Positions 9,963 to 33,112 of a stretch of 64,000 bases of DNA are shown one piece after another. Position 1 is the first letter of the stretch. Every line of letters begins with the position of its first letter. This DNA is from Elusimicrobiota bacterium (lineage in GTDB: Bacteria; Elusimicrobiota; Elusimicrobia; UBA1565; UBA9628), in assembly GCA_023213235.1 (NCBI GenBank), contig CP096137.1:3374437-3438436 (forward strand), written 5' to 3'. The notes under the pieces were generated by a model, which searched no databases, was not told where the DNA came from, and saw only the letters and a list, made by a program, of their open reading frames with translations. The position numbers and the translations under genes were made by a program.

Positions 9963-10011
9963 AGGGACTACTCCAGGGCCTTCTTCAGGCGGGCCTTCGC
10001 CAATGGGCTGA
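9205..10011 (+). CDS. REP-associated tyrosine transposase (Y1/HUH) with C-terminal helix-turn-helix
   Basis: FHCWARGVDR, YCLMPNHFHLL (HUH), HLFQERF, YIHRNPVRA, W.WSS. The real stop may be TGA 9956-9958 inside the right repeat if a base is missing. Confidence 0.85.
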   Translation: MGRKPRIHFDGAMFHCWARGVDRRTIYVDDSDYSGFMDCLEGVLRAADAKLIAYCLMPNHFHLLIQVGRIPLSSIMQRTLTTYAARFNKRHGRVGHLFQERFREKLCCDNVYLANIIPYIHRNPVRASLVASPDQWKWSSQSRFPVDSMDLTGFDPWEGSVDSPLDLTRREEMERASLQSVVEAVSMETSVDHALIRSGCKIAEAVSARRIAAVRMFEAGYSASDIARFLRIAISSACRFRPGRIAKLQSLTPGTTPGPSSGGPSPMG

Positions 10012-10189
10012 GGCCGGGGCAGCCGGCGTCGGACTTGCAGGCGCGGCGCAGGATCGTCAGGTGTTCGAGCAAACGCCGGCAGACGTCGCACACCGACAGG
10101 TGGAGCTTGGCGTGAAGTCCGATCGGGCGGCCGTCCATGGCGTCGGACAGCAGGCGGGCGACTTCCTTGCAGGACGGGAGCATGCTCAC
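9968..10189 (-). CDS. zf-HC2 (ZAS) anti-sigma factor
   Basis: SCKEVARLLSD...HLSVCDVC (HxxxCxxC); GTGA overlap with the sigma stop. Confidence 0.8.
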   Translation of the reverse strand: MSMLPSCKEVARLLSDAMDGRPIGLHAKLHLSVCDVCRRLLEHLTILRRACKSDAGCPGLSPLAKARLKKALE

Positions 10190-10734
10190 GCGGCCCCCGG
10201 TGCGAAGTGGTTCTTTTCGAGGCACCGGCGCAGGCGCAGGCGCGCGCGGTACAGGAGCACGGCCAGATGGGCGGGCGGAACGCCGAGAGCCTCGGCGGCG
10301 GCGGGGGCGTCGAGGCCTTCCATCTCGCGCAGGACGAAGGCGCGCGCGACGGGGGCGGTGAGGCCCTCGAGACAGCGGCGCAGGGCGGCCCCGAGCTCGG
10401 CGGACTCGGCCTTGGCCTGCGGCCATTCGCGCGGGGCCTCGGCGGGGGTCCAGTGGCGGCCGTCGAAGAGGTCATCCTCGCGGGAGCCGTCGTCGTCGCC
10501 GAGCGGCGTCTCTTTCGACTGCTTACGGTAATGCTCGAAGATTTTGTTTCGGAGGATGCCGGTCATCCAGGTCAGCTCGGAGGATTCGGCCTTGAACTTG
10601 GCTCTCGATTCGAGCGCGGCCAGGAACGTCTCTTGGACGAGGTCCTCGGCGGAAGCCTGGTCGCGCACGCGGGAGAAGGCGTAGCGGAACAGGCGGTCGC
10701 CGTAGGCATCGACCCATGATTTCGGATCGGTCAA
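10186..10734 (-). CDS. ECF RNA polymerase sigma factor
   Basis: AEDLVQETFLAA, TWMTGILRNK, FVLREMEG, LYRARLRLR. Confidence 0.9.
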   Translation of the reverse strand: MTDPKSWVDAYGDRLFRYAFSRVRDQASAEDLVQETFLAALESRAKFKAESSELTWMTGILRNKIFEHYRKQSKETPLGDDDGSREDDLFDGRHWTPAEAPREWPQAKAESAELGAALRRCLEGLTAPVARAFVLREMEGLDAPAAAEALGVPPAHLAVLLYRARLRLRRCLEKNHFAPGAA

Positions 10735-11485
10735 CGGACCTCCGTGATCAGGCCGCTCTCCGCGAGAAACGCGAAAAACGACTTCGTACGAGCCTCGGTC
10801 ATGCCTTTTGCCTTGGACAACGCCTGGGACAGACGAGCCCCCTTCATGAGCGAAGAAAGAACCGATGCTTCAGGAGCGGCGAGCGTGACGGAGCTTACGG
10901 GGCCGCCGCCGCGCTTATATAGGAGGACCCATTGCTCGTGAGCCCAATCGGACTTCTTGAGGGGAGAATCGTCGCGACGGTCTCTTTTCCAGATTCGGTG
11001 TACGGCATGGCCGAATTTCAAGAATCGGATCGCCGGGCCAAAAATCAATACGGAATTATTTTTGACGGATTGAGAGAGCAGTTTGGCCGACAACGGCGCG
11101 TGGGGCGCCGCGTGAAAGAGTTCTTTGTACTCCCATTCCAACACAGCCAAATTTTCTATGAACGGCGCTTCGCGCCCAAACTTCTTTTCAGGAATCCGGG
11201 GAACGAGCCGCCGTAGTCCGACAGATTATGGGATTTGGAAGGAACGGACCGCGCGTACTCCTCGCACGCCCTCAGAAAATCCTCGTCACCCAGAACGCGC
11301 CAGCAAGTCTCAAACGTCTCGCCCAACGCTTCCGACAGTCTCGCGGGATAGCCTTTCCGATACACGTCGACGGCGGCGAGGGCCGACAACCGGCCTCCTC
11401 CGGACACCGACGCGGCGAACGACGGGTCGACGGCGCCGTAGGCCGAGGAGACGAAGCGGCGTTGAAGCGCTTTAAGCGACGGCAA
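10731..11485 (-). CDS. DUF2063 / BufC-type MNIO partner protein (frameshift in the A-run near 11188)
   Basis: VYRKGYPARLSEAL..F, PS.SHNL.DYG..F. Adding one A joins the two ORFs as LKKKFGREAPFIENLAVLEWE. Confidence 0.8.
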
Positions 11486-12290
11486 GATTCGCCTCCGCCA
11501 ACCGTATCGCCTTCTTCACCTCGTTTTCGAGCACGTTCCACGCGGGGACGTCCTCGTCCCATTCGATGAGCACGGGAACCTCCGGCACGCGGCGGATCAC
11601 GCGGCGATACAACTCCCAGACGGGATCGGTCGGAGCCTTGGAGTGCGTGTCGAACAGGAAGTCGCCCATGTCGGAGTAGCCGCCGAGATGGAGCTGGGCG
11701 ATGAACTCCGAGGGAATCGCGTCGAGGTAATCCTCGGCCTTGAAGCCGTGGTTGGTCGCGCTGACGAAGACGTTGTTGACGTCGAGGAGGATCTTGCAGC
11801 CCGAGCGCCGCGCGATCTCGACGAGGAACTCCTCCTCCTTCATCTCGGAGTCGCGGTAGGTGAGGTAGCTCGACACATTCTCCAAACCGATCGGCCTTGC
11901 TAAATGCTCTTGGACGCGATTGACATTCCTGACGACGGTCCTGACCGCCTCTTCCGTATAAGGCAGCGGCAGGAGATCGTGAATATTCTTCGCGTGCGCG
12001 CCCGTGAAGCAGAGGTGATCGGTCACGAGGAACGGCTCGACCTCGGAGATCAGCCGCTTGAGGGATTCCAGATACCCGGGCCGCGGGCCCTCGACGCCGC
12101 CGATCGACAGCGACACGCCGTGCAGCGCGACGGGGTAGTCGCGACGGATCGCTTTGAGGACTTCTCGCGGGCGGCCGTGCGAGTCCATGTAGTTCTCGCT
12201 GAGGGCCTCGAACCAGGAGACGGCCGTGCGCGGGCGGCGAAGAAGGACGGGGAAGTGGGCGGAGCGCAGCCCGGCCCCCGCCTTGATCAG
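11472..12290 (-). CDS. DUF692 multinuclear non-heme iron oxidase (MNIO, BufB/MbnB family)
   Basis: GLR..H, EALSENY, LHGVSLSIG, DHLC, HDLLPLPY, LENVSSY, LLDVNNVFV, QLHLGG, DTH, LIEWD. The start is probably CTG at 12290, overlapping the precursor TGA. Confidence 0.9.
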   Translation of the reverse strand: MIKAGAGLRSAHFPVLLRRPRTAVSWFEALSENYMDSHGRPREVLKAIRRDYPVALHGVSLSIGGVEGPRPGYLESLKRLISEVEPFLVTDHLCFTGAHAKNIHDLLPLPYTEEAVRTVVRNVNRVQEHLARPIGLENVSSYLTYRDSEMKEEEFLVEIARRSGCKILLDVNNVFVSATNHGFKAEDYLDAIPSEFIAQLHLGGYSDMGDFLFDTHSKAPTDPVWELYRRVIRRVPEVPVLIEWDEDVPAWNVLENEVKKAIRLAEANLAVA

Positions 12291-12606
12291 CCCGCTTTGA
12301 ACTTTCCGTTTCGCGAGCGGCAATCGGTCTCCGTCAGGCTCAGCCAGCCCTTGCCCTTGCAGGCGTTCTGTCCGGCGCAGGCGTGGCCCTCGGGCCCGCC
12401 GCAGGCGCCCTGGCCTTTGCAGGCGTTGACGCCCCAGCACTCGCCCTTCTTGCCGTCGGCCGGCGCGGAAGCGCCCGTCGCGGGCCCCGAGGCCGAAGAC
12501 TGGGCGGCGCCGCCGTGGGCGCCGGAGGGGCCGGGGGCGTCGTCTTGCAACCGGCCATCGCGAAAGCGGCCAGGGCCGCCGCCGTCAGCTTCGTCTGTCG
12601 CTTCAT
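12287..12606 (-). CDS. Bufferin-type RiPP precursor, six-Cys CxGxNxCKG double-repeat class, with lipoprotein signal (frameshift in the Pro/Ala linker)
   Basis: AGGAGA SD; MKRQTKLTAAALAAFAMAG-C lipobox; core ECWGVNACKGQGACGGPEGHACAGQNACKGKGWLSLTETDC in the adjacent frame; directly upstream of DUF692. Confidence 0.8.
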
Positions 12607-12649
12607 GATCGTTCTCCTGAGGATGAGTGCCGGAAAGGCGTCCGGAATG

Positions 12650-14107
12650 TCAGGGCTTCTTGAGGTCGGCGGAGCGGTCGGCGGGCACGCCGTAGCGCGC
12701 CATGACGGCGGGCATGATCTTGGCCGCGGTGTCGGCGTCCATCACGATGCGCGTGCCCTTGTTCTCGCCGTACCCCGAGTAATGCTCGAGCTCGAGCACG
12801 TGCCGGCCGCCGAGCGGCTTCTCGAACGCGGCGACGAGGTCCTTGAGGCTGCCGATCAGGACGCCGTTGACGCGCGTGACCGGCGCCATCGAGAGGCCGT
12901 GGTAGCCGCGGTTGAAGTCGTGGGCGAGCACGTGGGAGAGGACGACGACCTCGGTCCGCTCCGGCGTGGGCATGCCGTCGGCCGAGAGCGAACGCACGCG
13001 ATAGCTCGCGCCGCGCGCCGCGATGAGCTCGTCGGACAGCGGCATGAACACGAGGCCGCCCGCGATGAAGTAGGCGGGGCGCGCGTCGTAGCGCGGGCCG
13101 GGAACGAGGTCGGCCGAGCCCTTCAGCGGCAGCTTGACCGTCGTCTTCTTGTCCTCGCGCACGACGACGGCGTCGAGCGTCTCGCCGATCTGTCGGCGGC
13201 TGATGAGGTCGGAGAAGTCGATGCGCTCGTCGTCGCGGAACGGGATCGTGCCGTCCTGGCCGATCTTGATGCCGTCGAGCTCCATGAGCACGTCGCCTTC
13301 CTTGAGCGCTCCCCACGCCGAGCCGCCGAAGCCGGTCTTCGTGATCAGGACGCCGCTGTTGTCCGGCGGCAGGGACAAGGTCTTGCGCAGGCTCTCGTTT
13401 TCAGTGCCTTGCCACCAGGCGCCGAGCTCGGGGATGCCGTCGTACTTGCCGTCGTCGACGTCTTTCAGGAAGCGCCGGATGATCGGCATCGGCACGACGT
13501 AGCCGATGTTCTGGGCGCCCGCGCTGTGCTGGAAGGCGATGCCGATGAGCTTGCCCTCCTGGAACACGGGGCCGCCGGAGTTGCCCGGGTTGATCGCCGC
13601 GTCCGTCTGGATCGCGAGCAGGCCGCGCGAGGAGTGCGAGTACACGGTCACGCCGACGCGCGAGACGATGCCCTCGGTTACCGACAGGTCGGTGCCGCCG
13701 ATCGGGTAGCCGTATACGGCCACCTTGTCGCGCTGCGACGGCACGCCGCCGAAGGGCGCCGGCTTCGTCCCGTCGAAGAACGAGGGGTCGTCGACCGTGA
13801 CGACGGCGGTCTCGCCGTCGTGCCCGGCGAACGCCACGCGCGCGGGATACTTGCGGATGTCCCCCGACTTGCGCACCGAGAGATAGGCCGCGTTGGCGAC
13901 GACGTGTCCGTTGGTCAGGATGCGGTTGCCCTCGATGATGACGCCGGAGCCCGTCCCGCTGCCCTGGCGGCCCGGCTGCCAGGGCTGGGCGTAGTCGGGG
14001 TTGCTGGCCGTGAAGTGGATCTGGACGGTGGCCCGGCGCAACTCGCGGTCGGCGTTGGCGGCCGCGGCGGGCGTCGCCAGGACGAGGAGCAGGAGAAGGT
14101 GGCGCAT
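12650..14107 (-). CDS. HtrA/Deg-type serine protease with PDZ domains (Deg2-like)
   Basis: Signal peptide from ATG 14107; GSGVII, LTNGHVV, GYPIGG, IQTDAAINPGNSGGP. Confidence 0.88.
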   Translation of the reverse strand: MRHLLLLLVLATPAAAANADRELRRATVQIHFTASNPDYAQPWQPGRQGSGTGSGVIIEGNRILTNGHVVANAAYLSVRKSGDIRKYPARVAFAGHDGETAVVTVDDPSFFDGTKPAPFGGVPSQRDKVAVYGYPIGGTDLSVTEGIVSRVGVTVYSHSSRGLLAIQTDAAINPGNSGGPVFQEGKLIGIAFQHSAGAQNIGYVVPMPIIRRFLKDVDDGKYDGIPELGAWWQGTENESLRKTLSLPPDNSGVLITKTGFGGSAWGALKEGDVLMELDGIKIGQDGTIPFRDDERIDFSDLISRRQIGETLDAVVVREDKKTTVKLPLKGSADLVPGPRYDARPAYFIAGGLVFMPLSDELIAARGASYRVRSLSADGMPTPERTEVVVLSHVLAHDFNRGYHGLSMAPVTRVNGVLIGSLKDLVAAFEKPLGGRHVLELEHYSGYGENKGTRIVMDADTAAKIMPAVMARYGVPADRSADLKKP

Positions 14108-22748: not shown

Positions 22749-24038
22749 ATGCGCGTCCTCCCCTCCTCCTGGCTTTTCTGCTCGCCTTGCCGGCGCAGGC
22801 GCAGAACGTCCGCGTCACCCCCACCCTCGGCACGACGAACGGCGTGCCGTCCATCACCGGGGTCTCCGGTCCGACGACGCTAGCGCCTCTTTCCCCGATC
22901 TCGGCGCTGACGCCGACGCTCGTCCCGACCCTCAACGCCGCGATCCTGGCCGCGCCCGCGCCGGTCGCTCTGCGAGCCTTCGACGTGAACGTCACGATCC
23001 CGGCGGCGGCGAAGGCCGAGTTCCCGGGAGTCCCCGGCGTTCCCGGCGCGGCGAAGACGCCGCTCAAGGCCGCCACGCCCGTCGACGGCTGGGCGAGCCG
23101 GTTCAACTTCAAGCCGGACGGCAATTTCTTCGATCAAAGCCGCGAGATCAAGGACCAGGTCGGCGGCCGGTATCAGGCTGTCCCGAAGGATCAGGGCAAG
23201 GTCCGCGTCCACATTCTCGAGCGCGCCCCGACGGTCGCGCCCAAGGCCGTTCCCGGAACGGAAGGCCTCTCCGGCAAGACGTTGCTCGACGCGCTGAACC
23301 AGATCACCGGACGCGGCTACAAGCAGAACGACTACGGCGCGGCGTCGGACTTCATGTTCTCGCAGGCGGACCAGGTGATCGTCAACGGACAGCGCGGCGT
23401 GATCGACGCCTACTCCGGCATCTTCGTGCCCGGCACGGGCAAGGATGGCGACGACTACCCCGAGCGCGGCGACCAGAACGGCGACGGGCACTCCGACGGC
23501 AAGGGCATGAACGTCGAGCACACCTGGCCGCAGTCGCTCTTCGCCAAGGCGCTGCCGATGCGCTCCGACCTGCACCACCTGATGGCGACCTTCATGCACC
23601 CGAACTCGGTGCGCGGCCACATGCCCTTCGGCGTCGTGACGGGACGGCCCGACTACGAGAACAAGGCCGGCGCCAAGCGCGGCAACGGCGTCTTCGAGCC
23701 GCCGGACGCGGTGAAGGGCGCGTGGCGCGCGGCATGCTGTACTTCTACTCGCGCTACAAGGACTCCCGCACGTTCGGCCGCAACTCGACCGAGTTCTGGA
23801 ACCAGCAGATCGAGCTGTTCCTCGAGTGGAACCGCCGCTTCCCCCGGACGCCTTCGAGGCGCGGCGCAACGACCTCGTGCAGTCCTTCCAGGGCAACCGC
23901 AACCCCTTCATCGACGACTACACCCTCGCCGACCGCGTCGGCAAGGACGCCTTCCGCCACGGCAATCCGCAGCGCGGCGGTCCCGGCTTCCGCATGGCCG
24001 GTGACGGCGGCCGCCGCCGTTCCTCCCGAAGGCGCTAG
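22749..24038 (+). CDS. Secreted endonuclease I family nuclease with long low-complexity N-terminus (about three frameshifts)
   Basis: AGGAGG SD; NVEHTWPQS, SDLHHL, NSVRGHMPFG, FEPPD.VKG, ARGMLYF, GNRNPFID. Confidence 0.8.
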
Positions 24039-26809: not shown

Positions 26810-29508
<2,699 letters not shown>

Positions 29509-29546: not shown

Positions 29547-29765
29547 ATGACTTACTCTTTCTCGGCGGTCGTGAATAGAGAGGGCCGGATGTTCGTTGCC
29601 CTCTGCCCGGAGTTCGACATCGCCAGCCAGGGAAGAACCGCAGCGACCGCGACCAAGAATCTGAAGGACGCGGTGCGGTTGTATCTCGAGACGGCATCCC
29701 CGGCCGAGCTCGAAGCCGCCAAGGCAGCCAAGACCGTCGTCAAAGAGCTCAGCGTCGCGGTCTGA
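29547..29765 (+). CDS. hicB: HicB-family antitoxin
   Basis: FVALCPEFDIASQG.T...A..NLKDAV; TTGCGG-17-TACACT-6-ATG. Confidence 0.8.
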   Translation: MTYSFSAVVNREGRMFVALCPEFDIASQGRTAATATKNLKDAVRLYLETASPAELEAAKAAKTVVKELSVAV

Positions 29766-29992
29766 TGGGCGGTCTGCCGGTCGTTTCCGGCCGGGAGGCG
29801 GTTCGCGCACTCGCGAAGGCCGGGTTCACCGAAGTCCGGCGAAAGGGCAGCCACATCATCCTTCAAAAGATATTGCCGGGCACGACGAACACCCTGATCG
29901 TGCCTGATCACAAGGAACTCGCCAACGGCACGTTGCGCGCGATCATCCGGAAATCGGGGCTGAGCGTGGATGAGTTTTCCGCCTTCCTGTAG
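29765..29992 (+). CDS. hicA: HicA-family mRNase toxin
   Basis: AGF..VRRKGSHIIL, IVPDHKEL..GTL.AII; TGATG overlap with hicB. Confidence 0.88.
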   Translation: MGGLPVVSGREAVRALAKAGFTEVRRKGSHIILQKILPGTTNTLIVPDHKELANGTLRAIIRKSGLSVDEFSAFL

Positions 29993-30032: not shown

Positions 30033-30367
30033 ATGACCAGAAAGTTCGCCGCGATCCTCGCCGTCCTCGCCCTGGCCACCTGCGCCGGGCGCGTGTCGGC
30101 GTGGGCGTCGGCTCCCGGCGACGAGCATGCCTGTTGCCGCGGCGAGCCCTCCGCTCCCGCCGAGGCGGCCGTCATCGAGTGCTGCGCCGTCCCGGCCGCC
30201 GTCGCCGCCGTGCGGGTCCCGGCCCCGGACGTTGTCCTCGTCGGCATGCCCGCCGCCCCGCCCGTCGTGCCCGTCTTCGCGCAGTCGTCCGTCGAGTCTG
30301 AGGCCCCGCCGGGTCCCGGACCTTGCGCGCCGCCGTTCCCGCTCGCGCTCCGCCTCTGTCGGCCTGA
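30033..30367 (+). CDS. DUF2946/CruR-like exported leader protein with probable C-terminal RAPP arrest motif (one base missing between 30302 and 30344)
   Basis: Signal peptide, EHACC and IECC motifs, Pro-rich spacer. The adjacent frame reads ...LRAAVPARAPPLSA* (RAPP at 30344-30355, TGA 30365-30367). Confidence 0.6.
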
Positions 30368-30419
30368 CGTCTCAAGAGCATCCTCAGGCCGTTCCCAAAA
30401 TTAAACAGAGAGGTCTATT

Positions 30420-30551
30420 ATGAAGAAAGTGATCCTGTCGCTCGCCGTGGTCGCCGCCGCCGCCGTCGCTGCCTACGCGGCGGACTGCTGCGGGCTGAGC
30501 CTGCCGTGCTGCAAGGCGCAGGCGTCCTGCTGCGACGCGGCGAAGAAGTAA
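30420..30551 (+). CDS. Unannotated 43-aa secreted cysteine-rich peptide
   Basis: SD AGAGAGG; MKKVILSLAVVAAAAVAAYA-ADCCGLSLPCCKAQASCCDAAKK*; host-like codons; followed by a terminator. Confidence 0.8.
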   Translation: MKKVILSLAVVAAAAVAAYAADCCGLSLPCCKAQASCCDAAKK

Positions 30552-30568: not shown

Positions 30569-30606
30569 GACGCCCCTCGGGCCTCGGCCCGGGGGCGTCT
30601 TATTTC
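30569..30606 (+). terminator. Intrinsic terminator after the Cys-rich peptide
   Basis: GC stem GACGCCCCTCGGGCC / GGCCCGGGGGCGTC followed by TTATTTC. Confidence 0.65.
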
Positions 30607-31305: not shown

Positions 31306-32139
31306 CTAGAGGGCCCATTGCGCGACGTTGACGCCGGCCAGCGCGTCGCGCCCGGAGGCGCGGCGGTGCTCGTCGAGGCCGAGCCAGAAGGTCTCGATGG
31401 CCTCGAGCGCCTTCTTGCCGCCCTTGAGGAAGCGCTTCGCGTCGAAGCCGGGCTGCTCGAACGTCTCCTCGAGCTCGCGCCAGACGTTGACGCCGTGGCC
31501 GGCCTCGATCTCGGCGTGGAACTTGAAGAAGCCGAGCGGGATCGCCTCGAGATCTTCCGACGCCCGGCGTTCATTGACGGCCTCGAGGCCTCGGATCAGC
31601 TGGCGCCAGAAGTTCCCCGCCTCGAGCGCGGGCCCCGCGCCCAGGCCGGAGGCCGCCCAGCACTCGATCGCGAAGGAGGCGCCCGCGCCGATCATCGGGT
31701 CATGCGAGCCGTAGGTCTTGTCGAGGCCGTTGAGGAAGGCCTTCGTCGCGTCGGAGGCGGAGGCCCAGCGGCCGAGCTTCATCGGCTCGATGCCGATGAC
31801 GGCTCCCGCGTCGCGCAGCCAGTTGAGGTGCGCGTTGCCCGTCGCGAACGTGCGCCCCTCGACCGAGCCCGTGCGCGGGTCGATGCCGACGCCGCACTCG
31901 TTCATCAGGATGTTGCGCGCGCAGCGCTCGCCCTCGAGCGTGCCGGCGTTGACCATGCGCTTCACCTGGAGCACCAGGAAGTGGTTCGAGAACACCGAGA
32001 ACTGCGTGATCAGCTCGGCGACCTGCTCCTCGTCGGCCTCGCCGCGGGCGAACCAGGCGGTGAAGGGATTCGCGGTGATCACGGGGTGCGTGAACAGCTC
32101 GCGGCGCACGACGGCTTTGAAGGCTTCGAGATCTTTCAT
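31306..32139 (-). CDS. Heme-oxygenase-like dimetal oxidase (PqqC/TenA/CADD superfamily)
   Basis: HPVITANPF N-terminus, ILMNE, AHLNW, FAIE and FHAEIEAGH (H-x3-E-x2-H) ligand pattern. Confidence 0.65.
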   Translation of the reverse strand: MKDLEAFKAVVRRELFTHPVITANPFTAWFARGEADEEQVAELITQFSVFSNHFLVLQVKRMVNAGTLEGERCARNILMNECGVGIDPRTGSVEGRTFATGNAHLNWLRDAGAVIGIEPMKLGRWASASDATKAFLNGLDKTYGSHDPMIGAGASFAIECWAASGLGAGPALEAGNFWRQLIRGLEAVNERRASEDLEAIPLGFFKFHAEIEAGHGVNVWRELEETFEQPGFDAKRFLKGGKKALEAIETFWLGLDEHRRASGRDALAGVNVAQWAL

Positions 32140-32219
32140 GCCCACAGCATACCCCGCGGGCTGTGTTTCTGTGAAGTAGCTAATATTGACATCACTGTTA
32201 ACCTGTGGTTTACTACGGC

Positions 32220-33112
32220 ATGGACCTCTACCAGCTGCGCTACTTCCTCGAGACGGCCCGGGAACTCAACTTCACGCGGGCCGCCGCGAACCTCGGCGTC
32301 TCGACGCCGGCCGTCAGCAAGAGCGTCGCCCTGCTCGAGCGCTCCGTCGGGCAGCCCCTGCTCACGCGCACCCGCCGGCTCGTCCAGCTGACCCAGGCCG
32401 GCGAGCGGCTCAAGGTCCACGCCGAGCGCGTCTTCGACGAGGTCGAGGCGGCGCGCCTGGACCTGCGCGGCGAGGCGGGCTCGCCCGCGATGCTCAAGAT
32501 CGGCAGCCGCGAGATGATCACGAACTACCTGCTGGGGCCGTCGCTGTTGGAGCTGAGGAAGCTGCACCCGTCGACGCGCACCGGCATCTACGAACTGGGC
32601 CCCAAGGAGATGGCGGCCGCGCTGAAGAAGAACCAGATCGATTTCGCGTTCTACTACAGCGCCGAGATCCCCGATCCGTCCCTCGAGATCCGCCGTCTCG
32701 GCCATCTCGATTCTCACGTCTACGCCGCGCCGTCCTTGTGGAAGGGCGCCAAGGCGCCTAAGACGTTCGACGAGGTACGCAAGCTCCCGTTCATCGCCCC
32801 GCGCTATTTCGGCGCCGATCCCGCGGAGGCAAGCCTCGACGGCTTCCCCGATCAGGAGTCCCCCGGACGATCCAGTACGAGGGCGAGTTCCTCGAGACCC
32901 ACCGCCGCTTCGCCCTCGACGGCATCGCCGCCGCGGTCCTGCCCGACTTCACGGTCAAGCGCGAGTGGAAGGCCGGCCTGCTCGCGCGCCTCCCGGGGCC
33001 GGAGCTCGGCCGCGAGATCTACTTCCTGAAGCGCCGCGGGCGGACGCTCCCAAATGCCGTCGACGCCTTCGTCGACGTCGTCGCCCGCTCCATCAAGCGC
33101 GTCGCCTACTGA
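32220..33112 (+). CDS. LysR-family transcriptional regulator (frameshift near 32865)
   Basis: MDLYQLRYF...NFTRAA..L.VSTPAVSK...LE; divergent from the dimetal oxidase. Confidence 0.88.

Follow-up and report, generated by a model that had tools for sequence, protein, structure and literature searches.

Introduction

Nascent-chain metal sensors of the CutF and CruR kind have been described just in the years 2022-2025, in Proteobacteria and Streptomyces, and their targets are enzymes, transporters or receptors. CutF carries a Sec signal, a Cys motif and a Pro-rich stalling tail, combined with a stem-loop that shields a Shine-Dalgarno (SD) sequence, and its stalling is prolonged by copper (PMC9973294; bioRxiv 10.1101/2025.02.05.636593). 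CzcI and CopL are CutF-like proteins found upstream of czcCBA or copA (PMC9973294). CruR contains a CXXC motif and a RAPP sequence at a fixed spacing (PMC9426467), and its arrest has been shown in vitro (PMC12992588). The role of RAPP in arrest is established for ApdA/ApdP and for CruR (PMC10951233, PMC12992588), and bacterial proteomes exclude RAPP and RGPP, the exceptions being sequences close to the C-terminus of small, exported proteins whose genes precede metal genes (PMC12992588).

We have analysed a 64,000-nucleotide stretch (the window) of contig CP096137.1 from an Elusimicrobiota bacterium, in which an initial annotation had pointed out a short exported peptide with three vicinal Cys pairs. 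Because its gene stands behind one of the CutF/CruR stalling-sensor type, the peptide is most likely copper-controlled, copper-binding and periplasmic. By analogy with those systems, the reading that we consider probable is a two-gene cassette in which translation of a periplasmic Cu(I)-binding thiolate peptide would be gated by a nascent-chain metal sensor.

Results

The six-Cys peptide gene

The peptide ORF (30420-30551; all features given here are on the forward strand) encodes 43 residues, MKKVILSLAVVAAAAVAAYA|ADCCGLSLPCCKAQASCCDAAKK. The first part, MKKVILSLAVVAAAAVAAYA (30420-30479), is a signal peptide with an A-Y-A end of the signal-peptidase-I type, and the sequence around the cleavage site, AAYA|AD, is invariant among 14 homologues. 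The mature part of 23 amino acids, ADCCGLSLPCCKAQASCCDAAKK, occupies 30480-30551 together with the stop codon and has six invariant Cys at conserved spacing and a basic C-terminus. The six Cys (26% of the mature residues) are arranged exactly as CC-x5-CC-x5-CC. An SD sequence, GAGAGG (30408-30413), lies 6 nt upstream of the ATG, and the gene is followed by an intrinsic-terminator-like hairpin with a G+C-rich stem at 30574-30595 and a T-rich tail (30574-30605 in all), which it has in common with the convergent gene of a CsgG-like lipoprotein (end at 30600); similar hairpins are found 3' of the peptide gene in relatives. Cys spacing, SD and signal peptide are as the initial annotation had described them, and it had also noted a terminator. 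A promoter-like match at 30392-30421 cannot serve the peptide gene, because its -10 element overlaps the ATG, and it was rejected.

GC3 of the ORF is 0.95 in frame and 0.60 and 0.56 in the other two frames, compared with 0.96 for the aconitase gene, and the median pairwise dN/dS of the family is 0.37. More than 20 homologues were found, from one Elusimicrobiota genus and from metagenomes: of 37 genomes of the genus 8 encode the peptide, and it is also present in an extra genome of the genus reached by a phylum-wide search and on metagenome contigs. The alignment of 14 homologues (A1) shows that M1, K2, A15, A17-A21, D22 and all six Cys are invariant, and that the residues separating the Cys pairs vary. 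The end of the signal peptide, AAYA|ADCC, is kept by every homologue, and CC-x5-CC-x5-CC by all except one divergent variant. One variant carries His beside the Cys pairs (CCHGAHACCHG). Homologues with conserved CC spacing, whose absence had been named in the initial annotation as what would speak against its proposals, therefore exist.

The same source called the ORF unannotated, which is plausible, as the exact sequence is absent from a protein collection of 5.8 billion clusters, where the best match is 95% identical. A Pfam scan of the peptide gave no family at E <= 0.1, neither Pfam nor NCBIfam assigned a family to the peptide, to the leader or to the small genes located downstream in relatives, and a PDB sequence search with a profile of the peptide returned nothing at E <= 10. 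An NCBIfam match to the phage pheromone AimP (E = 0.013) was rejected since it covers the signal peptide alone. Judged on its sequence, the product is a real, conserved, exported six-Cys peptide of an Elusimicrobiota genus.

The upstream leader ORF

A conserved ORF at 30033-30367, overlooked in the initial annotation, precedes the peptide gene. It encodes a leader of about 111-112 amino acids when read in frame 3 up to a run of C at 30315-30317 and from there in frame 2 to the TGA at 30365-30367; read with this frame change, its C-terminus is ..PPGP|RTLRAAVPARAPPLSA followed by the stop codon. As assembled, frame 3 runs on to a TAA at 30402-30404, and a tblastn search with an intact relative (L023) matches the window in two frames. 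Since frameshifts of this kind also affect the aconitase, the LysR regulator and an endonuclease in the window, the frame change in the leader is probably an assembly error or indel. If it were real, the window leader would have no terminal RAPP, and the ribosome would terminate at 30402-30404, just before the SD of the peptide gene.

The leader starts with a signal peptide, MTRKFAAILAVLALATCAGRVSAWA (30033-30107), recognised by inspection from its basic N-terminus, hydrophobic core and cleavage-type end VSA-WA, and conserved in the leader alignment (A2). Two vicinal Cys pairs follow. In the first, H-A-C-C (30126-30137), H, A and the first C never vary in A2 and the second C is present in at least 90% of the sequences, and distant members keep it as H[AS]CC; in the second, E-C-C (30177-30185), CC is invariant in A2 and the pair reads [EDQ]CC across the family. 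The leader thus has two vicinal pairs instead of the CXXC/CxxxC motif of DUF2946/CruR, and PF11162 (DUF2946) gave no match at E <= 10 against 24 leader members and nothing at E <= 1 in a search of the whole genome. Near the C-terminus, the codons CGC GCT CCG CCT (30344-30355) encode a RAPP sequence that is invariant in A2 and is the presumed site of ribosome arrest; by analogy with CruR, the ribosome would halt with its P and A sites on the two Pro codons.

The family comprises at least 24 intact homologues of about 112 amino acids, and lengths of 103-128 amino acids among the 45 members collected. The motif is RAPP in 42 of these, RSPP in two and RGPP in one, and this R[AGS]PP sequence stands 1-4 residues from the stop in the 45 members and 2 residues from it in 36; the window leader ends in this manner only if the frame change at 30315-30317 is allowed for. 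In 39 of the 45 members, RAPP follows the second CC at a distance of 53-55 residues, across a spacer of poorly conserved sequence. A profile search of 1.84 billion representative proteins recovered just 21 relatives, nearly all of 103-123 amino acids, most of which show H[AS]CC..CC plus a tail of R[AGS]PP and 1-4 residues. AlphaFold2 predicts a helix at residues 2-19 and disorder elsewhere, with low confidence (pLDDT 57). As in the CutF-like proteins delimited by Ozturk et al. (2023, PMC9973294), the leader is shorter than 150 amino acids and has an N-terminal signal peptide by inspection, and the position of R[AGS]PP relative to the stop (in the window, with the frame change allowed for) and the gap to the peptide gene, which is adjacent and 44-55 nt away in every cassette examined, also agree with rules given there.

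A predicted hairpin and invariant codons at the end of the leader

Both the minimum-free-energy and the centroid structures place the end of the leader in a hairpin with the SD of the peptide gene. The 5' arm (30354-30367) consists of an anti-SD, CUCUGU (30354-30359), and one strand of an inner stem, CGGCCUGA (30360-30367), that includes the leader stop codon. On the 3' side (30384-30413), UCAGGCCG (30384-30391) pairs with the inner stem, and ACAGAG (30405-30410), which overlaps the SD GAGAGG, pairs with the anti-SD. The codons after RAPP are predicted to pair with the peptide SD in all 14 leaders folded, and the tail codons of the divergent cassettes L051 (RAPPLG and stop) and L050 (RAPPAI and stop) also pair with the SD region.

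We compared the pairing of the SD to the presumed footprint of the stalled ribosome, 23 nt that begin with the Arg codon of RAPP, with that in dinucleotide shuffles. The mean probability of this footprint pairing is 0.95 for the 14 leaders and 0.28 for the shuffles, and in 11 of the 14 the observed value is reached by at most 5 of 200 shuffles. The window copy taken alone is not clearly above its shuffles (0.69, reached by 33 of 200), and it has the value of -1.25 in a range of fold z-scores from -1.25 to -4.6 among five leaders. A test that asked simply whether the SD is paired at all gave 0.96 observed and 0.71 in shuffles of the C-rich leaders; it discriminates poorly because C-rich shuffles also pair with GAGAGG. 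RNAalifold, applied to a MAFFT alignment of 11 leaders in which the inner stem is misaligned and its 5' arm is fixed by coding, retained only the seven invariant SD:anti-SD pairs, and these show no covariation because they never vary.

The codons that contribute to the anti-SD are unusually constant. The two Pro codons of RAPP are CCG and CCT in 11 of 11 genes, CCT being rare, and the Leu codon after RAPP is CTC in all ten genes that have Leu there; elsewhere in the leader, conserved Pro and Ala columns use 2-4 codons. The cassette thus consists of two real, conserved genes; RAPP and the Cys pairs are maintained, as is the spacing, and the conserved potential to pair with the SD goes together with invariant, partly rare anti-SD codons.

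Genomic context

The neighbours of the peptide gene in the window are HicAB, the leader ORF, the CsgG-like lipoprotein, a haem-oxygenase-like enzyme and a LysR regulator, so that the remark of the initial annotation that no modifying enzyme is adjacent holds within the window. We considered the haem-oxygenase-like enzyme (31306-32145) as a modifying enzyme and rejected it because it is not conserved beside the peptide, being absent there in L023, L025 and L040. No genes for immunity or export accompany the peptide. A bufferin-type operon (with MNIO BufB and a BufC of the DUF2063 type) is present elsewhere in the window, at 9968-14107.

Neither in the window nor in most relatives does a metal gene adjoin the cassette. 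Four divergent members, relatives that are located in copper-resistance gene contexts, provide the copper link. In two genomes (G010 and G007), the gene immediately before that of the peptide encodes a multicopper oxidase that contains an HMBD domain; the G010 operon starts with a leader homologue of 129 amino acids that has no RAPP, continues with an outer-membrane efflux gene and the multicopper oxidase and ends with the peptide, and an RND pump adjoins it. The order in G025 (contig C53) is leader, peptide variant and outer-membrane efflux gene, and in G044 an outer-membrane efflux gene comes directly after the leader. Marker genes of the mer, ars and czc kinds were not seen at the loci examined.

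Discussion

Proposed mechanism

In the mechanism that we infer, the first gene (30033-30367) would provide a Sec-exported, intrinsically disordered leader with HACC and ECC pairs and RAPP 2-3 codons before its stop, and the second (30420-30551) a Sec-exported 23-residue peptide with three vicinal Cys pairs. The codons after RAPP and the region of the leader stop would base-pair with the SD of the second gene, whose efficient translation would therefore need a ribosome arrested on RAPP, and would last only while this ribosome keeps the hairpin open. The duration of the arrest would be set by the fate of the leader Cys pairs during co-translational export: binding of periplasmic Cu(I) may delay export of the leader, prolong the arrest and so switch the peptide on, as has been shown for CutF in Rhodobacter capsulatus. 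The peptide would bind periplasmic Cu(I) through its six thiolates, and could be a small sponge or chaperone that works beside multicopper oxidase and efflux systems. We favour this direction, copper on, rather than copper off as in CruR, because leaders of the same type directly precede efflux genes. Several points count against the gated copper model. Vicinal Cys might form disulfides in the oxidising periplasm and not bind metal, the hairpin of the window copy is not clearly above its shuffles, the SD:anti-SD pairs show no covariation and PF11162 is unmatched.

More tentatively, the two genes may constitute a self-contained periplasmic copper homeostat in which sensor and product share a vicinal-Cys chemistry. 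The Cys6 peptide would buffer free Cu(I), perhaps in a cluster of the Cu4(S-Cys)6 type, and thereby remove the signal from the leader and shut off its own synthesis, which would make it a natural, unmodified, Sec-exported mini-metallothionein. We found no description of such a class in the searchable literature.

Alternative explanations

The same parts could serve thiol/disulfide homeostasis and not metal, with the leader Cys pairs reporting Dsb-type oxidation and the peptide acting as a sacrificial thiol buffer or as a disulfide-laddered signalling or antimicrobial peptide. Some genes for DsbA and thioredoxin are also preceded by RAPP/RGPP leaders (PMC12992588), the six Cys might pair up in three disulfides, and the window has no metal gene adjacent to the cassette. 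The operon partners are, however, an HMBD multicopper oxidase, outer-membrane efflux proteins and an RND pump and not Dsb or thioredoxin, the His-bearing variant CCHGAHACCHG suggests metal ligation, and no immunity or export genes accompany the peptide; we regard this explanation as unlikely. Nothing points to the purely disulfide-knotted form that the initial annotation had listed among its options. The architecture might also be as we propose with a cognate metal other than copper, such as Ag(I), Hg(II), Cd(II), Zn(II) or arsenite, each of which has a preference for vicinal thiols. For Hg(II) and As(III), a vicinal Cys pair is a classic ligand, and Zn, Cd and Co are also exported by RND and outer-membrane efflux systems; moreover, not all CutF-like leaders are copper-specific (PMC9973294). 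Against this, the most specific neighbour is the multicopper oxidase with its HMBD domain, and mer, ars and czc markers were not seen at the loci examined, which makes another metal very unlikely.

Two further explanations concern one gene each. The upstream ORF might encode an ordinary small Cys protein of the periplasm, acting as partner or chaperone, with which the peptide is simply co-expressed, RAPP and the hairpin being incidental. This would be compatible with the frequent SD pairing in shuffled C-rich sequence, the lack of covariation and the RAPP-less homologue in G010, and the Pro-rich tail of CutF alone is a weak staller in fusion constructs (PMC9973294). It would leave unexplained why 42 of 45 members have RAPP at a constant distance from their stop, and the other three R[GS]PP, why the 53-55-residue spacer is conserved in length and not in sequence, and why the synonymous sites of the post-RAPP codons are frozen, the rare CCT included; the leader is also predicted to be disordered, and ordinary bacterial proteins strongly avoid RAPP (PMC12992588). 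We give this explanation little credence. The peptide, for its part, might be a RiPP precursor whose Cys the DUF692 MNIO/DUF2063 pair, encoded about 18 kb upstream, would turn in trans into thiooxazoles or related groups, yielding a bufferin-like metallophore. Such modification by the MNIO had been suggested in the initial annotation, and we found no positive support for it except co-occurrence: MNIO genes are present in 8 of 8 peptide-bearing genomes of the genus compared with 24 of 37 overall (hypergeometric p ~0.02, uncorrected for phylogeny), an association confounded by phylogeny and by the shared copper theme. The peptide does resemble bufferin precursors in its Sec signal peptide and high Cys content (PMC11626156, PMC12452194), but a DUF2282-type precursor with CxGxNxCKG repeats already adjoins the MNIO within its own operon, the peptide matches no Pfam or NCBIfam model of bufferins or precursors, an MNIO adjoins the peptide in none of at least 15 loci examined, and the paper on the MNIO landscape makes no mention of precursors with vicinal Cys (CC pairs) or of Elusimicrobiota. 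A RiPP is accordingly highly improbable.

The remaining suggestion of the initial annotation, a periplasmic metallothionein-like chelator, has gained from the search for homologues and their neighbourhoods that it recommended, which showed the CC spacing to be conserved and placed divergent members in operons with outer-membrane efflux proteins, the HMBD multicopper oxidase and the RND pump; a leader like CutF and CruR stands upstream as well. The interpretation given in the initial annotation is thus supported in part, by context and for the chelator.

Significance

For a switch of the CutF/CruR type, a six-Cys peptide is a target that has not been described. The proposed copper-gated cassette would bring the same logic to an uncultivated genus of Elusimicrobiota, with a leader family that Pfam does not recognise and that uses vicinal Cys pairs, and with a predicted target, a 23-residue exported hexathiol peptide, of a kind usually missed by gene callers. 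Provided that it binds Cu(I), the peptide would extend the known periplasmic copper defences (CusF, CopC, multicopper oxidases and bufferins) by an unmodified, ribosomally made, exported metallothionein-like molecule, and could offer a minimal and easily synthesised model of a metal-thiolate cluster. Sensor and effector would form a very compact pair, transferable to reporter systems.

Comparison with known systems

Among arrest peptides, the leader shares with ApdA, ApdP and SecM/MifM/VemP (PMC7897499, PMC10987492, PMC10951233) an N-terminal export signal and a C-terminal arrest motif of the RAPP type, and in the proposed model a stalled ribosome would free a downstream SD as it does in them. 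Those proteins monitor the export machinery, control sec/yidC genes and have linkers without conserved Cys pairs, unlike the leader. CruR of Bordetella pertussis (Bp2923, DUF2946) likewise has RAPP 2-3 residues before the stop, an export signal and little structure, and the distance from the Cys motif to RAPP is fixed in both, at 45 residues in CruR (PMC9426467) and 53-55 here. CruR differs in acting through Rho-dependent termination across an intergenic region of 162 nt, where the cassette has 44-55 nt and a hairpin predicted to occlude the SD. The arrest of CruR is relieved by copper, which switches off a TonB-dependent importer, and the CruR signal peptide is dispensable.

Small Cu(I)-binding proteins such as CusF, CopC, CutG and the metallothioneins SmtA/BmtA and MymT provide the comparison for the product. 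Its high Cys content (26%) is common to it and the metallothioneins, whereas CusF and CopC are folded Met/His proteins and the known bacterial metallothioneins are cytoplasmic and have no signal peptides; Pfam, NCBIfam and PDB sequence searches showed no similarity of the peptide to known metallothioneins and copper chaperones. Bufferins (BufA, DUF2282, BUF_6/12Cys; PMC11626156, PMC12452194) are, like the peptide, Sec-exported and Cys-rich, and are copper-protective and periplasmic. Their precursors adjoin their own MNIO, which converts Cys to thiooxazoles, while the CC peptide lacks both a neighbouring enzyme and a matching model.

The CutF-cutO(G) system of Rhodobacter capsulatus is similar in several respects. 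Its leader is also small and Sec-exported, and combines a Cys motif, which here too would bind metal, with a Pro-rich motif at the C-terminus for (here presumed) stalling; only a short intergenic region follows, with a stem-loop that shields the SD of the next gene, as predicted for the cassette, and the target belongs to periplasmic copper handling, as is probable for the peptide. CutF has a CxxxC motif, unlike the two vicinal pairs (HACC..ECC) of the leader, to which PF11162 finds no match, and its target is a multicopper oxidase, whereas the putative target in the window is a 43-aa Cys6 peptide, in the lineage Elusimicrobiota. The divergent operon of G010 can be related to the same group at both of its ends: its 129-aa RAPP-less homologue resembles, by description, the CzcI-type leaders without a Pro motif (PMC9973294), and its CC peptide, following the multicopper oxidase, stands in the position of CutG in cutFOG.

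An exported peptide with three vicinal cysteine pairs is conserved

The ORF at 30420-30551 (+; translation MKKVILSLAVVAAAAVAAYAADCCGLSLPCCKAQASCCDAAKK) has an N-terminal part with a basic start, a hydrophobic core of 15 residues and an A-Y-A end of the signal-peptidase-I type, followed by a mature peptide of 23 residues in which three vicinal Cys pairs show the exact spacing CC-x5-CC-x5-CC. A Shine-Dalgarno sequence (SD), GAGAGG, is located 6 nt upstream of the ATG, and a G+C-rich hairpin and then a T-rich tail lie 3' of the stop codon. These features confirm the ORF with evenly spaced Cys pairs that had been proposed in the initial annotation. GC3 is 0.95 in frame versus 0.60 and 0.56 in the other frames (aconitase gene, 0.96).

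Six-frame searches of 37 genomes from the genus of the window detected the peptide in 8; a phylum-wide search added one more genus genome, and scans of a protein collection and of metagenomes gave further copies. In an alignment of 14 sequences the signal-peptide end (AAYA followed by AD) and all six Cys are invariant and the residues between the pairs vary freely. Pairwise dN/dS has a median of 0.37. The peptide is a conserved gene. Its homologues keep the CC spacing, and it is therefore not the orphan that the initial annotation had named as the case against its proposal. One variant carries His beside the Cys pairs (CCHGAHACCHGVK) and another has shorter spacers (CCLSQACCPGPCC). A different secreted Cys-rich peptide of ~44 aa, MKKILLIISVLAVVVSVSFA followed by ECCSCGNDSCSTGETCSTAECPQK, is conserved in four low-GC Elusimicrobiota genomes of another family (L057, L063, L066 and L067; about 1500-1635, +).

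The peptide gene follows a conserved leader family with RAPP near its C-terminus

The initial annotation described the peptide correctly but missed a conserved ORF directly upstream. This leader (~112 aa), found 44-55 nt upstream of the peptide in every relative, has no match in Pfam or NCBIfam. Twenty-four homologues have in common a signal peptide, two Cys pairs, a near-invariant PPGP and, two residues before the stop, an invariant RAPP (..AVPARAPPLA-stop). The first Cys pair is HACC (H-A-C invariant, the second C near-invariant); the second, mostly ECC, is invariant in its CC. A profile search retrieved only 21 family members among 1.84 billion representative proteins, nearly all of 103-123 aa; most combine H[AS]CC..CC with a tail in which 1-4 residues follow R[AGS]PP, and in three, ..SPP-type tails replace R[AGS]PP. 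The gap between the Cys pairs ranges from 9 to 18 residues. In 39 of 45 members RAPP comes 53-55 residues after the second CC, although the stretch between them is poorly conserved in sequence and its indels compensate for one another. An AlphaFold2 model shows a signal helix only, the remainder being disordered (pLDDT 57). Relatives lacking RAPP (locus L038, 11802-12191, -; proteins P0046 and P0047) have the C-terminus GLSPP(P)AA(G)L(A), which could represent another stalling tail, of polyproline type, or a CzcI-like form that does not stall. In genome G010 such a relative opens the efflux-oxidase-peptide operon described below.

In the window, the leader ORF (30033-30367, +) is split by a single frame change at a C-run (30315-30317): ..EAPPGP is read in frame 3, and frame 2 carries on RTLRAAVPARAPPLSA to the TGA at 30365-30367. 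Single frame changes also split the aconitase (26810-29505), the LysR gene (32220-33109) and probably a bufferin-type precursor (12287-12606), and endonuclease_1 (22808-23978) is split twice. Since other genes are split alike, and since completeness is only 83.6% for a genome in a single 3.8-Mb contig, which points to uncorrected indel errors, an assembly indel is the likeliest cause.

The leader tail is predicted to pair with the SD of the peptide gene

The leader codons after RAPP are complementary to the peptide SD, in most members as CCG-CCU-CUC-GCC-UGA versus GAGAGGU. The window has CUCUGU (30354-30359) paired with ACAGAG (30405-30410); CGGCCUGA (30360-30367), in the region of the stop codon, and UCAGGCCG (30384-30391) make up an inner stem. 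A fold placing the post-RAPP codons on the SD was predicted for 14 of 14 leaders, with z-scores of -1.25 (window), -1.9, -3.1, -3.4 and -4.6 in five of them. Whether the SD is paired at all discriminates weakly (0.96 observed versus 0.71 shuffled), because shuffled C-rich sequence pairs with GAGAGG too. We therefore used a more specific test, pairing of the SD with the 23-nt footprint expected for a ribosome stalled at RAPP, with 200 shuffles per leader. This gave 0.95 versus 0.28 in shuffles, and no more than 5 of the 200 shuffles reached the observed value in 11 of the 14 leaders; the window copy (0.69, 33/200) and L006 (0.77, 21/200) are not significant alone. Covariation was not detected, all seven SD:anti-SD pairs being invariant.

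The RAPP Pro codons are CCG and CCT in 11 of 11 leader genes, CCT being a rare codon in a genome with GC3 above 0.9, and the following Leu, where present, is CTC in 10 of 10. Each of the other conserved Pro, Ala and Arg columns shows 2-4 codons, and these frozen synonymous sites argue for constraint at the RNA level. In two divergent cassettes with other tails, RAPPLG-stop before a peptide variant and RAPPAI-stop before an efflux gene, pairing is likewise predicted between the tail codons and the SD region of the gene that follows.

Gene neighbourhoods suggest a link of the cassette to copper

In genome G010, a 129-aa HACC..SCC protein without RAPP, homologous to the sensor part of the leader (hhalign probability 93.5%), is followed by an outer-membrane efflux protein, a multicopper oxidase that carries an HMBD domain at its C-terminus and, last, a divergent peptide, with an RND transporter divergently transcribed from this operon. 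The oxidase-peptide junction recurs in G007. In G025:C53 a RAPP leader is followed by a peptide variant, then a Cys protein of 83 aa and then an outer-membrane efflux gene, and in G044, which belongs to another family of the order, such an efflux gene lies directly 3' of a RAPP leader of this family. The 83-aa protein (L051, reverse strand, about 2074-2328; same region in L041) has an N-terminal hydrophobic segment plus CALEESCHACLC and no Pfam match.

Most relatives, like the window, have the cassette on its own, with aconitase on one side and a CsgG-like lipoprotein on the other, at a site that also receives HicAB, restriction-modification genes and other insertions. A HicB-like/HicA toxin-antitoxin pair lies between aconitase and leader in the window (29547-29992); relatives have a HicB remnant, restriction-modification genes with an HTH gene, or nothing, and because its content differs in this way the site is an insertion hotspot. 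Some relatives carry, right after the peptide or nearby, a Gly-rich secreted protein of 161-174 aa and one or two membrane proteins of 134-145 aa without family match (L027 9513-10821; L025 10280-11205; L040 6712-7149), all absent from the window. A haem-oxygenase-like enzyme (31306-32145, -; weak match to Haem_oxygenas_2) adjoins a divergent LysR regulator (32205-33109, +) in the window; this pair is kept in L027 and L075 and is unlinked to the cassette in other relatives.

We consider it somewhat probable that a CutF/CruR-like arrest leader gates translation of an exported hexathiol peptide that would bind Cu(I); arrest, metal binding and direction of control are what we infer. Because the same leader type heads efflux genes, we lean towards copper switching the peptide on. 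Among the readings offered in the initial annotation were a chelator, the one favoured here, and modification in trans by the DUF692 enzyme (MNIO) with its partner DUF2063, which is possible but unsupported. An MNIO does occur in 8 of 8 peptide-bearing genus genomes versus 24 of 37 overall (hypergeometric p ~0.02, uncorrected for phylogeny), but both systems are copper-related, which weakens this co-occurrence. Moreover, the bufferin-type operon (9968-14107, -; Deg protease, DUF2282-like precursor, DUF692, DUF2063, ECF sigma factor and anti-sigma factor) holds its own adjoining precursor with two CxGxNxCKG repeats, whereas the CC peptide matches no precursor model and lies beside an MNIO in none of the loci examined.

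Comparison with known arrest leaders

In Bordetella pertussis, the exported protein CruR (DUF2946), encoded by an upstream ORF, carries a CXXC motif and, three residues from its end, RAPP, at a fixed spacing of 45 residues; copper relieves its arrest, leading to Rho-dependent termination (PMC9426467). In vitro, the arrest occurs with the P site and the A site occupied by the two Pro codons (PMC12992588). Bacterial proteomes strongly avoid RAPP and RGPP; the exceptions are small exported proteins encoded upstream of metal and other genes, which have these motifs near the C-terminus (PMC12992588). For CutF, periplasmic copper slows co-translational export, which prolongs stalling and turns on a multicopper oxidase (PMC9973294; bioRxiv 10.1101/2025.02.05.636593). 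The leader shows all four defining features of CutF-like proteins: it is shorter than 150 aa, carries a signal peptide, has PP among its last 15 residues and is separated from the next gene, on the same strand, by a short intergenic region. Because PF11162 (DUF2946) does not match it and vicinal CC pairs replace CXXC, we call it a new sequence family that would work like CutF, not a demonstrated DUF2946 member. A full-text literature search turned up no account of exported Cys-rich peptides gated by a leader. The regulatory kind is already known, and the new variants are the leader family, the vicinal-Cys sensor that it carries and the very small peptide that is its target.
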